The notes beneath the pieces were generated by a model. The model saw nothing but the letters and a program-made list of their open reading frames with translations, made no database searches and was not told the origin of the DNA. The translations under genes were made by a program, and so were the position numbers. Shown here piece by piece: positions 28,803 through 48,728 of a stretch of DNA of 64,000 bases. The DNA comes from Escherichia coli (lineage in GTDB: Bacteria > Pseudomonadota > Gammaproteobacteria > Enterobacterales > Enterobacteriaceae). Every line of letters starts with the position of its first letter. The first letter of the stretch is position 1. The stretch is from NCBI RefSeq assembly GCF_003334405.1, contig NZ_QOWM01000018.1. The stretch is one strand, 5' to 3'.

Positions 28803-28889
28803 GTTAGTTGAAAAGAGATTACCTCCGGTCAGGGCCACCAACTCTGTAACGGAACAGTAAAAAAACCGACCTCACCAGTCGGTTTTTTT
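28803..28889 (+). ncRNA. candidate ~87-nt sRNA (promoter -35 TTGCTA 28768-28773, -10 TATTAT 28791-28796; intrinsic terminator 28859-28889)
   Basis: sigma70-like promoter with 17-bp spacing, perfect terminator hairpin CCGAC..GTCGG + T7; 5' end 16/16 identical to 28616-28631. Confidence 0.35.
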
Positions 28890-29042
28890 ACATCTGTTGT
28901 TTCTCAAAATCCGCCCGACATGCCCGTCACACCGGGGAAACTCATGCTCTGAATCAGAACCAACCATCTCAACTTTGCCGTCTCCTGAAAAAACTGGCAC
29001 ATTCAGTTCGATAACTACCCATAAATACAGAGAGAAAATCCG

Positions 29043-29365: not shown

Positions 29366-29521
29366 TTAACGTTTAACTTCGTAGGCTAACGTTGCCACAA
29401 GCACTGTGTTTCCCTGCTGGAGCCGGAGTCCGCAAAGCGAATCCCTCACCATCCAAACAAAACACAGAATCGTCACACAGATGACGATTAACATCATTAA
29501 AAACGTTCGCTGTGGCATCAT
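29366..29521 (-). CDS. pndA: Hok/Gef-family type I toxin PndA
   Basis: translated by hand: MMPQRTFLMMLIVICVTILCFVWMVRDSLCGLRLQQGNTVLVATLAYEVKR, GGAGG RBS; not in ORF track (under 60 aa); overlapped by longer pndC/mok-like frame 29373-29657. Confidence 0.8.
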   Translation of the reverse strand: MMPQRTFLMMLIVICVTILCFVWMVRDSLCGLRLQQGNTVLVATLAYEVKR

Positions 29522-29809
29522 AGCCCCTCCATTGCCTTACGGCGGTTATCGGGCTACTATAATGTTGTCTAGGCATTACAGTAGAGCCCTTGGTTGATTG
29601 ATAAAAAAATCTCCAGGGGCTTTCTGCTGTATACCGTCCACAAAACGCTTTCGGCATACAGCCTCAAGCGCCCGCAGCTATTCTAACGACTTTCGTATCT
29701 GCAACAATCCTTTTATCGCACGGCTAATTCCTCTGGTTAGCTCTTATCGCCTGCAAATAAATTTTTAACCTTTCCGTTTGATTTAAATTCCAGAAATGGA
29801 GACTTTGTC

Positions 29810-39014: not shown

Positions 39015-39330
39015 TCATCTCCCGGAGGAGCGAAGCTCCTTCTGCCGTCCGGGTCTTCGGGGATTTCCCCGCAGTGGACCTTTCCGACGGGGGACGCTCA
39101 CCACGTCACGGGGCAGTTGTCCGGGGGCAGACGCAAAAGTTTTTGACGCCTGCGGCAAAAAGTTTTGTGGCTGGTACATCTCTCCCCTGGATGACTGAAA
39201 CGGGATGTGGTCGTGTATGTACCCCCGGAAAGTCCGTCTGCGGAGAACGGGCCGCAGGGCGGCGGCAGGCAGGCAGAGAGAACTGCGCCATCAGGCGCAG
39301 TGGCCTTACACACCGTAAGGTGTGCAGGGA
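39015..39330. promoter_or_regulatory. structured repeat family 1, copy A (Frpo/ssi-like single-strand promoter candidate), truncated
   Basis: aligns with 41880-42375 and 48225-48728; lies 5' of the minus-strand gene 38125-38973. Confidence 0.55.
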
Positions 39331-39450
39331 GCGCCGCATCCGGCGCGACCGGAGAAAACCGACGGCACAACAACGGCATGCGGTGGTCACTGGTACACCA
39401 CTCCCGCACAGGTGAAAACAGAGAAAACCGCACGACATCTACAACTAAAA

Positions 39451-39552: not shown

Positions 39553-39804
39553 ATGACCGGCTGGGAACTGCGAATCTGGCGAAAAAGCATGCTCTGGTCA
39601 CGCGAAAAAGCGGCCAGAGAATTTGGCGTGACACAGAGAACATGGCACGCCTGGGAAAATGCGGATCAGGTGGATGTCACCGTCTGGAGGACCACCCAGG
39701 CACTTTCAGTCCGTGACCTGCTGCCTCACATGCAGGGGATGCGCAAGGCAGATATCATCAGGCGTCTGGAAAATGAACTGGGGGAAACGGCAGAGGATGT
39801 GTGA
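39553..39804 (+). CDS. small helix-turn-helix (XRE/Cro-like) DNA-binding protein
   Basis: 83 aa; HTH-like segment WSREKAAREFGVTQRTWHAWENA; only plus-strand gene in the leading region. Confidence 0.55.
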   Translation: MTGWELRIWRKSMLWSREKAAREFGVTQRTWHAWENADQVDVTVWRTTQALSVRDLLPHMQGMRKADIIRRLENELGETAEDV

Positions 39805-39834
39805 GCGTGATTCACAGCCTGGCTGAATGCCAGG

Positions 39835-39993
39835 CTACTGCTCATCAGGAAACAGTTTTTTCAGTTCTTCACCGGAAAGTCCGGTCGCCTCCTGAATCCG
39901 TTCCGGCGGCCAGCCCATATCCCGCAGCCGGCAGGCTATTTCCCGCGCCACTTCAAGAGCGCCTTTTTGAATAAGACGTTCTGCAATCGTCAT
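39835..39993 (-). CDS. free-standing RpnS-like small protein (homolog of Rpn C-terminal tail)
   Basis: 52 aa from ATG 39993: MTIAERLIQKGALEVAREIACRLRDMGWPPERIQEATGLSGEELKKLFPDEQ, parallels the last 61 aa of adjacent Rpn. Confidence 0.45.
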   Translation of the reverse strand: MTIAERLIQKGALEVAREIACRLRDMGWPPERIQEATGLSGEELKKLFPDEQ

Positions 39994-40055
39994 GCTGTTT
40001 GCTCTGCTCCTGCTGGCAAAAAAGCCCGGGATTTTGCCGGGCTTTGCGGTTCTCA

Positions 40056-40970
40056 TTAGTGAGTTATTTTCTTCAGTTCGTCATCGGAAAGTCCGGTAGC
40101 CTGCTTAATCTGCTCCGGCGTCATCCCCATTTTCTGAAGCTGGCACGCAATAGCCAGGGCTTTTTCAAGCGCTCCTTCCATGCGTCCTTCCATCCTGCCT
40201 TCCTGGCGACCTTTTTGCTCAAGACGTTCTGCGATAGTCATCAGTTTATCCTCATGCTGCGGCAGACGCTCAGCCAGCGCCCGCATAAATTCCGGTGATA
40301 CAGAGTCCCCTGCGTTAACGATGTAATGAATCAGAACACGCACCTGCTCGTCTGAAATTTCCACCATGACCTGCGGGAGTTTGTCCAGCAGCTCCATCAT
40401 GTCACGATGGCGGATATGCTTCATCAGCAGCGTCAGTGCGGCCATCCGGCGATGGTTCATGATTTCATTGTCATCAACGACAGTGATATCAACCAGCGGA
40501 AACGGCTTTGTGTATATTTTAGCCGCAAGTGCCGGATTCTCAAAACAGTCCAGCCAGTTCATGCTGTACGGATACGGGCTGCGCTCACCATGATAGAACA
40601 GCACCGGAATCACCAGTGGCAACGTTTTGTGCTGCTCCAGATGTCTCTGCATCGCCGCCACACTGTAACGTAACATGCGGAAAGGCATGTACAGATTTTC
40701 GGTGCTCTGGTGCTCGATGAGCGTATAAACATAGCCATCTTCACCCCCGGTGGTTTTCACGCTCCAGAGGATATCGCTGGCGTACTGATGCAGGTCCGGC
40801 TCAACAAAGGTGGCGGGTTCCAGCTTCAGCGTGGACAGGTCGCACAACTGCCGGTACTCCGCCGGAAGATGCAGTTCCAGAAAATCTCTGGCGACGTCGG
40901 GATTCGCCAGGAACGACCGGAACGCGGCATCGTGCGGCGTGGGCGTTGTGGTGTTTTTCTTCTTACTCAC
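40056..40970 (-). CDS. Rpn-family (YhgA-like, PD-(D/E)xK) recombination-promoting nuclease
   Basis: 304 aa from GTG 40970 with AGGAGG RBS; motifs DGYVYTLIEHQSTEN, in-frame internal Met MTIAERLEQKG 61 aa from the end. Confidence 0.65.
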   Translation of the reverse strand: MSKKKNTTTPTPHDAAFRSFLANPDVARDFLELHLPAEYRQLCDLSTLKLEPATFVEPDLHQYASDILWSVKTTGGEDGYVYTLIEHQSTENLYMPFRMLRYSVAAMQRHLEQHKTLPLVIPVLFYHGERSPYPYSMNWLDCFENPALAAKIYTKPFPLVDITVVDDNEIMNHRRMAALTLLMKHIRHRDMMELLDKLPQVMVEISDEQVRVLIHYIVNAGDSVSPEFMRALAERLPQHEDKLMTIAERLEQKGRQEGRMEGRMEGALEKALAIACQLQKMGMTPEQIKQATGLSDDELKKITH

Positions 40971-41829: not shown

Positions 41830-41879
41830 GAAAACGTCTCCTTCTGCTGAATCAGGTCGCCGGGCCGACCGGTTGCTCC

Positions 41880-42375
41880 CCGGAGGGGCGAAAGCCCCTT
41901 CTGCCGTCCACTTCTTCGGGGTTTCTCCCCGCAGTGGACCTTTCCGATGGGGCGTCCGTCACCACGTCACGGGGCAGCTGTCCGGGGGCGGACGCAAAAT
42001 TTTTTGCCGGGTTTATGGCTAAAAATTTTGTGGACGGTATATCTTCCCCTGGACTGCTGAAACGGGATGTGGTTACTCCAGCCCCCGGAAAGTCCACAGC
42101 GGGAAACAGGCCGCAGGGGTGGCGGCGGAAGGGTTGACTGCGCCATCAGGCGCAGTTGCCTTACACACCGTCAGGTGTGCAGGGAGCGCCGTTTCCGGCG
42201 CGACAGGGGCGGCGCGACCGGAACGGTCGCTGCAAGCCTGGTTTTTCAGACATCGGACCGTAGCGGCAGCCCGAAACCGCGCCAGCGGGTTCGGCGGAGA
42301 CTGGCGGGTGCGCCAGCAGCTGCCTGTCGGAGTCGGGCCTGACGACCGGATGCCGCCAGGCAGCCGGGAGCCGAA
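41880..42375. promoter_or_regulatory. structured repeat family 1, copy B (Frpo/ssi-like single-strand promoter candidate)
   Basis: ~500 bp, near-identical to 48225-48728; many internal hairpins (CTGCGCCATCAGGCGCAG, CACACCGTCAGGTGTG). Confidence 0.6.
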
Positions 42376-48224: not shown

Positions 48225-48728
48225 CAGAGGAGCGAAAGCTCCTCCTGCCGTCCACTTCACAGGGGTTTCTCCCCGCAGTGGACCTTTCCGATGGGGGCCC
48301 GTTTACCGCCTCACGGGACAGCTGTCCGGGGGCGGACGCAAAATTTTTTGCCGGGTTCATGGCTAAAAATTTTGTGGCCGGTGCATCTCACCCTGGACAG
48401 ATGGAACGGGAGGGGGTTACGTCTGCCCCCCGGAAAGGTCCACAGCGGGGAAACAGGCCGCAGAGGTGGCGGCAGGAGGGAAGACTGCTGCGCCATCAGG
48501 CGCAGTTTCCTCACACACCGTCAGGTGTGCAGGGAGCGCAGGTTACGGCGCGACAGAGGCGGCGCGACCGGAACGGTCGCTGCAAGCCCGGGTTTTCACG
48601 CATCGGACCGTAGCGACAGCCCGAAACCGCGCCAGCGGGTTCGGCGGAGACTGGCGGGTGCGCAAGCAGCTGCCTGTCGGAGTCGGGCCTGACGACCGGA
48701 TGCCGCCAGGCAGCCGGGAGCCGAAGTG
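48225..48728. promoter_or_regulatory. structured repeat family 1, copy C (Frpo/ssi-like single-strand promoter candidate) 5' of ssb
   Basis: ~500 bp near-identical to copy B. Confidence 0.6.

Follow-up and report, generated by a model that had tools for sequence, protein, structure and literature searches.

A free-standing RpnS-like cassette behind the RpnP2 nuclease gene in the leading region of IncI-complex plasmids

Background

The rpn genes encode a toxic nuclease (RpnL) together with an intragenic antitoxin (RpnS) (Zhong et al., PNAS 2023, PMC10400941) and have recently been recognised as a toxin-antitoxin and antiphage system. RpnS varies by repeats of 4 amino acids (aa) in its dimerising helix, and one extra repeat was found to abolish the inhibition of RpnL by RpnS, as tested for RpnC alone (PMC10400941). 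Free-standing RpnS genes located downstream of rpn genes (rpnSs), both on chromosomes and on plasmids, were described in 2023 along with fusions and deletions, two examples being rpnESs (ypaA), which is translated and whose protein was detected, and rpnCSs (PMC10400941). Here we describe a gene of this kind, hereafter called the mini-gene, in a 64,000-nucleotide (nt) stretch of Escherichia coli DNA (contig NZ_QOWM01000018.1; the whole stretch is hereafter called the window), in which it follows a plasmid-borne rpn gene. Its identity as a duplicated, diverged and selected RpnS unit is well supported, and it is probably not the working antitoxin of the adjacent nuclease.

Like RpnESs (YpaA) and RpnCSs, the mini-gene is a small open reading frame (ORF) directly downstream of an rpn gene and homologous to the C-terminal RpnS of that gene; like them, it is an apparent local duplication that varies between strains by 4-aa repeats and can be lost by deletion or fusion. 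Unlike RpnESs and RpnCSs, which lie downstream of rpnE and rpnC, it stands behind the plasmid gene for RpnP2, in a conjugative leading region and downstream of a predicted single-stranded DNA (ssDNA) promoter. It also differs from them in being a distinct sequence type that is constant behind three types of rpn tail, with repeats that never match those of its neighbour, and in that the cassettes are spaced here by a conserved hairpin and Shine-Dalgarno (SD) sequence, with up to three cassettes in series.

Results

The mini-gene opens with MTIAERLIQKG, 62 nt past the rpn stop codon and on the same strand (the coordinates of the features are given in Table 1). An earlier note, made from the letters of the window alone, had placed there an independent ORF of 52 codons homologous to the tail of the Rpn protein; its coordinates were right, and the homology was confirmed by BLASTP (54% identity, E=2e-15). 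The sole gap in this alignment covers 12 residues, which are exactly the three 4-aa repeats of the tail. At the DNA level, tail and mini-gene form a 110-nt direct repeat with 75% identity, and no further rpn or RpnS-like sequence is present elsewhere in the 64-kb window. In addition to the window, 22 loci from PLSDB and RefSeq were read (23 in total, designated by L and a number where they have to be told apart), 22 of the 23 containing the mini-gene as a free-standing gene. Its ATG and the SD-like AGGAG and GAG are kept in all 22. The sequence type of the mini-gene is referred to below as type B, and that of the rpn tail of the window as type A; tails of types C and D occur in related plasmids.

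Table 1. Features of the rpn and mini-gene locus, in window coordinates
Feature	Position	Strand	Basis
Free-standing RpnS paralog (mini-gene), type B cassette, 52 aa, zero 4-aa repeats	39835..39993	-	homology to rpn tail
SD-like sequence of the mini-gene, AGGAG at -18..-14 and GAG at -11..-9	40002..40011	-	homologous to sequence before internal start of rpn
Terminator-like spacer hairpin, AAAGCCCGG-caaaatc-CCGGGCTTT and T run, between rpn stop and mini-gene	40018..40045	-	RNA fold, conservation
Hairpin at 3' end of mini-gene, AGCCTGGC-attca-GCCAGGCT, paralogous to the spacer hairpin, without T run	39816..39836	-	
rpn (R64 name ygdB), RpnL PD-(D/E)xK nuclease, 304 aa	40056..40970	-	ORF, ribosome-binding site, family matches
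Putative intragenic RpnS, type A tail, 61 aa	40056..40241	-	internal ATG at 40241
Three 12-nt (4-aa) repeats, RQEG RMEG RMEG, in helix 1 of type A tail	40173..40208	-	
Candidate internal promoter of the RpnS transcript inside rpn, sigma-70-like TTGAGA-16-TAAAAT	40516..40543	-	consensus scan only
ssi/Frpo-like ssDNA promoter element, directly 5' (- sense) of ygcA-ygdA-rpn-mini-gene	41879..42207	+	repeat copies, ssDNA fold

The homology between the tail and the mini-gene extends beyond the coding sequences on both sides. It starts approximately 20 nt before the ATG (CCGCAGCATGAGGATAAACTG in the tail unit versus AGCAGGAGCAGAGCAAACAGC in the mini-gene unit) and continues past the stop region into a 3' hairpin (AGCCCGG...CCGGGCT versus AGCCTGG...CCAGGCT), the two stems differing by a compensatory change from C-G to T-A. 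The mini-protein ends in an additional PDEQ, as a consequence of a 1-nt frame change across the old stop codon. The sequences indicate that the duplicated unit, composed of about 20 nt with the SD, the ORF and the 3' hairpin, probably arose by tandem duplication of the intragenic antitoxin unit of rpnP2. The spacer hairpin is conserved in all 22 loci, with a compensatory change from A-U to G-C in L012, L013 and L020, and looks like an intrinsic terminator in the RNA fold prediction. It was not listed by the promoter and terminator scan, probably because its stem extends into the T run.

The annotation pipeline PGAP models the mini-gene as a 73-aa protein (WP_001604501.1), the start codon of which overlaps the rpn stop codon (TAATG) and the 21-codon extension of which (39994-40056) reads through the hairpin and the spacer. 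In about half of the related loci this extension is out of frame or without its ATG, owing to changes in the length of the T run or to a TGAGTAA variant, and it is variable at many residues, whereas none of the loci has lost the 52-codon core. The 73-aa model was accordingly rejected, and the 52-codon model represents the conserved product. In newer RefSeq records, the repeat-bearing versions go by the name 'RpnC/YadD family protein', and PF27070 is found on some database copies of the mini-protein. No significant Pfam family was found for the mini-protein at 52 or 64 aa, and DUF4351 (PF14261), which has been reported 'in some species' for RpnS and was not presented as universal (PMC10400941), matched neither the 52-aa nor the 64-aa version. 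PADLOC contains no model for Rpn or the mini-protein, and no Rfam match was found within the rpn and mini-gene locus.

The mini-protein can be compared with RpnA-S, of which a crystal structure is available (PDB 7TH0). The single mini-protein sequence matches the 49-aa RpnA-S chain colinearly (E=1e-3), and a profile of 13 sequences does so with E=4.7e-11. An AlphaFold2 model of the mini-protein (pLDDT 76.9) contains helices at residues 3-25, 30-37 and 41-47, and the top match of this model in the PDB is again 7TH0 (probability 1.00, TM 0.76/0.85, rmsd 1.1 A over 44 columns), followed by helix-turn-helix domains. According to the model, the mini-protein shares the three-helix-bundle fold of RpnA-S. 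RpnA-S belongs to a different Rpn paralog, and dimerisation and partner specificity of the mini-protein would follow by analogy.

The rpn gene itself starts with GTG, 7 nt downstream of an AGGAGG ribosome-binding site. Its product was recognised by Pfam as PF04754 (Transposase_31/YhgA-like, residues 11-207, E=2.2e-78) and by NCBIfam as TIGR01784 'Rpn family' (181.9 bits, cut-off 52.1), and the catalytic residues D14, D66, E86 and Q88 are intact, in agreement with its earlier assignment to the Rpn/YhgA-like nucleases. The codons of these four residues are those altered in the published RpnP2LS+M gBlock, and both the upstream region and the 5' coding sequence of gBlock AO591, which represents the published RpnP2, are identical to those of the window. 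On this sequence identity, the rpn gene of the window is the ortholog of the plasmid protein RpnP2 of Zhong et al. 2023, that is, the same gene as in the RpnP2 LS toxin-antitoxin and antiphage system of the ECOR13 plasmid. The accession numbers of these proteins were not found in Dataset S1 of the bioRxiv supplement of Zhong et al.

Residue 244 of the rpn product is an in-frame Met opening MTIAERLEQKG, preceded by an SD-like GAGG at -12 to -9 (~40250-40253). As the earlier note had proposed for the last 61 codons, putative translation from this internal start fits the RpnS-type arrangement. Internal promoters have been reported for E. coli rpn genes (PMC10400941, Fig. 1 legend), and a candidate was found by consensus scan inside rpn (Table 1).

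Two side observations concern rpn in the related plasmids. In some IncI1/B/O and IncI-gamma plasmids (L005 3013-3402, L006 2968-3357, L021 2103-2492 and L022 2721-3110), a gene for a 129-aa hypothetical protein (WP_000833767.1) shares 4 nt with the start of rpn; the window has no such gene. In the Klebsiella michiganensis plasmid pPIMR (L011, CP029771.1, ~1181-2290), rpn is disrupted and the mini-gene is intact: the frame opening with the N-terminal motif stops after approximately 174 aa, there is an additional ~150 nt in the locus, and the annotation includes no Rpn coding sequence.

Comparison of the loci showed that the RpnL tails are mosaic, belonging to types A, C or D, and that the downstream cassette is of type B behind all three. 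Outside the repeats, the identity of B is 65% to type A, 55% to D and 46% to C, and the hydrophobic residue of the repeat is F in B, M in A, and I or V in C and D. The repeats of B have the form F(D/E/K)(E/K/Q)G. In the IncK2/Z plasmids L003 (2752-3450) and L004 (2752-3486), three cassettes are found in series: an RpnL tail with 6 or 9 IQ(K/Q)G repeats is followed by a free-standing type A ORF and then by a free-standing type B ORF, the cassettes being separated by a 62-nt hairpin and SD spacer of identical type. The middle, free cassette of these two plasmids thus corresponds in type to the RpnL tail of the window. Conversely, R621a (L022 1801-2724, NC_015965.1) and another 15 records of PLSDB carry no free-standing B; their nuclease domain continues directly into B, and the point of fusion falls within the 21-nt MTIAERL box that the cassettes share. 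With N for the nuclease domain, a hyphen for its fused tail and a slash before each free-standing cassette, the architectures seen are N-C/A/B, N-A/B, N-D/B, N-C/B and N-B. Free-standing B is present in ~97-98% of the records, and the N-B fusion in ~1%.

For the 21 loci in which rpn is intact and B is free-standing, the number of repeats was compared between tail and mini-gene. Tails of type A contain 1-5 repeats in the related plasmids, and B contains 0-5 across the loci read and 0-6 across 120 protein clusters; in the window, the mini-gene has none and the adjacent tail has three. The two numbers are uncorrelated (Spearman -0.04) and equal in none of the 16 distinct combinations, with about 2 expected by chance (P=0.10). 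Between plasmids with 98-99% identity in the remaining sequence, one number shifts without the other, as a single gap of 12 or 24 nt. A cognate antitoxin would have the same repeat number and the same tail type as its RpnL, and in the window the mini-gene differs from the adjacent RpnL in both. According to the published mismatch rule, B with zero repeats should therefore not pair with the window RpnL with three.

The published RpnP2 experiments also bear on the role of the mini-gene. RpnP2S was found to be very abundant, and the RpnP2LS construct, which carried 101 bp of downstream sequence only, was non-toxic and protective against T-even phages (PMC10400941). The annealing part of the reverse primer AO619 was not found in the window; its site falls within the mini-ORF of repeat-bearing relatives, and in L005 its end is exactly 101 nt away from the rpn stop codon, at codon 14 of the mini-gene. 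Because the construct ends 101 nt after the rpn stop, it stops inside the mini-gene, at codon 13 or 14, an intact copy of which was not part of the tested system. Since this construct was nevertheless non-toxic, the mini-gene appears dispensable for the neutralisation of RpnP2L under those conditions.

How often such an ORF accompanies plasmid rpn genes, a question raised in the earlier note, was surveyed in PLSDB, where the rpn nuclease domain is present in 2040 records and the mini-gene core in 2001 (~98%). The core was also found in 1339 of 5426 complete E. coli genomes, 1419 of the 1434 places being on plasmids. The type B ORF is intact in 23/23 loci; rare frameshifted versions exist among the protein clusters. 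A search of 1.84 billion representatives returned mostly fragments or frameshift products of the type B cassette and a few other free-standing RpnS-like proteins.

Substitutions were analysed in the non-repeat 156 nt of the mini-gene, 24% of the sites being synonymous. The pS of 0.106 and pN of 0.026 correspond to a pN/pS of 0.24, a value resting on these 156 nt, and the 13 synonymous and 12 non-synonymous segregating variants represent a significant synonymous excess (P=0.003). The type A tail has a pN/pS of 0.20, and the nuclease domain and ygeA, a nearby gene described below, each have approximately 0.08, the overall divergence among the plasmids being low (pS 0.05-0.10). The coding constraint on the mini-gene equals that on the genuine tail. 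Slippage of 12-nt repeats is by nature in frame, and changes in repeat number are therefore not evidence of selection.

The segment matches 2042 PLSDB plasmids, almost all of which are conjugative IncI1/B/O, IncI-gamma/K1 or IncK2/Z plasmids. The gene order, nikB-nikA-oriT-yggA-ygfB(DUF4942)-ygeA(helix-turn-helix, opposite strand)-mini-gene-rpn(ygdB)-ygdA-ygcA...psiA-psiB-ssb, read from oriT, shows that the locus is the leading region of an IncI-complex plasmid, as the earlier note had supposed. An ssi/Frpo-like element of ~330 nt is present in three copies (39021-39352, 41879-42207 and 48227-48650) with 79-88% mutual identity, which in the - sense precede ygfB, ygcA-ygdA-rpn and ssb, respectively. 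Folded as + strand ssDNA, the middle copy reaches -102.8 kcal/mol (z=-10.1). In the IncI1 plasmid pESBL, the three ssi are class-1 ssDNA promoters, and the operons under their control undergo strong induction 15 min after transfer (zygotic induction; PMC12672017). The mini-gene lies downstream of an ssi-like element in the orientation of the zygotically induced genes, and by homology ygcA-ygdA-rpn-mini-gene may be one of the zygotically induced operons.

On the other side of the mini-gene, ygeA (39553-39804, + strand) encodes an 83-aa helix-turn-helix protein and runs towards the mini-gene, the two stop codons being only 30 nt apart. Its sequence is highly conserved (pN/pS 0.08). Among the genes of this stretch, it alone is on the strand for which the entering ssDNA cannot serve as template. 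Elsewhere in the window, two Rfam families scored above their gathering scores, the sok antitoxin RNA (29516-29673, - strand, 134 bits) and the AgrB antisense RNA (28804-28891, + strand, 58.5 bits), indicative of a hok/sok-type (pnd) locus at another place on the plasmid.

Discussion

We favour, with moderate confidence, the reading that the mini-gene is an orphan or alternative cassette of the rpnSs class, which pairs only with type B C-terminal domains and can be fused to the nuclease domain. The mechanism that we infer is as follows. By likeness to RpnA-S, the long first helix of the mini-protein would be its dimerisation surface, and its choice of partner would depend on the sequence type and on how many 4-aa repeats this helix contains. 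The mini-protein is probably not the antitoxin of the adjacent RpnL, because the intragenic RpnS does that job; more likely, it self-associates and pairs only with type B C-terminal domains, which would make it an orphan, alternative cassette. Recombination in the 21-nt MTIAERL box common to all cassettes could join the nuclease domain to a downstream cassette, and such joining would change the pairing specificity between toxin and antitoxin. The expression of B is probably low and would occur by read-through of the upstream hairpin.

Several points weigh against this reading. As the 23 loci come from related plasmids, they cannot be counted as independent. That the repeat numbers are never equal is not significant alone (P=0.10). 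The mismatch rule was established with RpnC only, and B, even with zero repeats, could still make contact through helix 1 outside the repeats, where its identity to type A is 65%. The spacing of the SD of the mini-gene is weak, and a terminator-like hairpin precedes an ORF that is supposed to be translated. The 16 fusion records have one identical junction and may represent a single event. Finally, cassette exchange may be adaptive or may merely occur.

The arrangement resembles the PilV shufflon of IncI plasmids and silent pilin cassettes in that a constant N-terminal part is followed by alternative C-terminal cassettes, which recombination at a short common sequence attaches to it. Unlike these systems, of which it is not a family member, the RpnS array is without a dedicated recombinase or sfx-type sites, it changes by deletions and fusions and not by reversible inversions, and its cassettes carry their own start codon and SD. 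A bolder proposal, which we consider unlikely, is that the RpnS cassettes form a tail-switching array operating through the MTIAERL box, possibly promoted by Rpn itself, which would reset the pairing and perhaps the target specificity; the free cassette would then act as an early-expressed orphan antitoxin against Rpn proteins with the same tail encoded by rival resident plasmids.

The alternative that keeps most plausibility, as a real but minor possibility, is an additional or back-up antitoxin, as the earlier note had suggested: the mini-protein would bind the adjacent RpnL despite the repeat mismatch and add to the intragenic RpnS, for instance during plasmid entry. RpnS proteins are antitoxins (PMC10400941), and the mini-gene directly follows rpn in the same orientation, presumably within one operon, co-occurs with it in ~98% of the plasmids and encodes a protein with 65% identity to the tail outside the repeats. 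Against this stands the lack of matched repeat numbers in 16/16 combinations, without any co-variation, and a mismatch of one repeat abolishes inhibition in the RpnC test (PMC10400941); moreover, type B follows three different tail types. The mismatch, the dispensability of the mini-gene in the non-toxic RpnP2LS construct and the already very high level of RpnP2S (PMC10400941) argue against an extra dose of antitoxin, which we thus disfavour.

It is quite unlikely, in our opinion, that the mini-protein is an anti-defence decoy, expressed from the ssDNA promoter soon after transfer and neutralising the Rpn-type nucleases of the recipient cell or of rival plasmids, its repeat number tracking those targets. 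In favour of such a decoy, the mini-gene is located in the leading region in the orientation of zygotic genes, an ssi/Frpo-like element lies directly upstream of ygcA-ygdA-rpn-mini-gene, and operons behind class-1 ssi are strongly induced in the IncI1 plasmid pESBL (PMC12672017). Leading regions are enriched in orphan antitoxins, for which a role against toxin-antitoxin defences of the host has been proposed (Samuel et al., Nature 2024, PMC11541004). Like these, the mini-gene is small, antitoxin-like, in T-strand orientation and near ssDNA promoters; unlike them, it adjoins a toxin gene of the cognate family, and its anti-defence role would be conjectural. Rpn genes are not mentioned in PMC11541004. 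A suitable target exists in the RpnL with a type B tail of R621a-like plasmids, but type B tails on full-length Rpn occur in only ~1% of the sister plasmids, and no chromosomal full-length Rpn with such a tail was found among the library of 1.84 billion representatives. In addition, pairing is highly specific, so that one fixed protein would cover few targets, and a terminator-like hairpin separates rpn from the mini-gene.

That the mini-gene is a non-functional by-product, a recent tandem duplicate hitch-hiking with rpn and varying because 12-nt slippage is always in frame, appears very unlikely. In-frame repeat changes need no selection, the plasmids are little diverged overall (pS 0.05-0.10), rare frameshifted versions exist among the protein clusters and the mini-gene was dispensable in the published RpnP2LS construct, which are points in its favour. 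However, the synonymous excess is significant, and the pN/pS of 0.24 equals that of the functional tail; all 22 free-standing loci retain the start codon and SD; the identity of B to type A has fallen to 65%, and B is still intact in ~2000 plasmids; and the mini-gene is retained in L011, where rpn is broken. The dead duplication remnant considered in the earlier note is likewise contradicted by an ORF that is intact in 23/23 loci, is under constraint (P=0.003) and keeps its own SD and ATG. It is extremely improbable that the real product is the 73-aa PGAP protein, made by translational coupling at the TAATG overlap. The 73-codon frame is open in the window with its ATG overlapping the rpn stop, but its extension is encoded by the hairpin and spacer, varies at many residues and is out of frame or without an ATG in about half of the loci, in all of which the 52-codon core is intact.

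Several aspects of the orphan type B cassette that we favour appear to be new in the literature examined: the type B cassette itself, its constant type behind mosaic tails and its unmatched repeats, as well as the unit of SD, ORF and hairpin, the arrays of three cassettes, the omission of the mini-gene from the tested construct and its position behind a predicted ssDNA promoter.

Conclusions

The antitoxin of Rpn systems is encoded inside the toxin gene, by which toxin and antitoxin are forced to co-evolve, and a free-standing copy escapes this constraint. The mini-gene is carried by approximately a quarter of the complete E. coli genomes and adjoins RpnP2, the one plasmid Rpn shown to defend against phages. 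Natural variants exist with matched and mismatched repeat numbers, arrays of three cassettes and fused forms. As the operon is probably switched on at plasmid entry, the orphan-antitoxin idea for leading regions would be directly testable at this locus.

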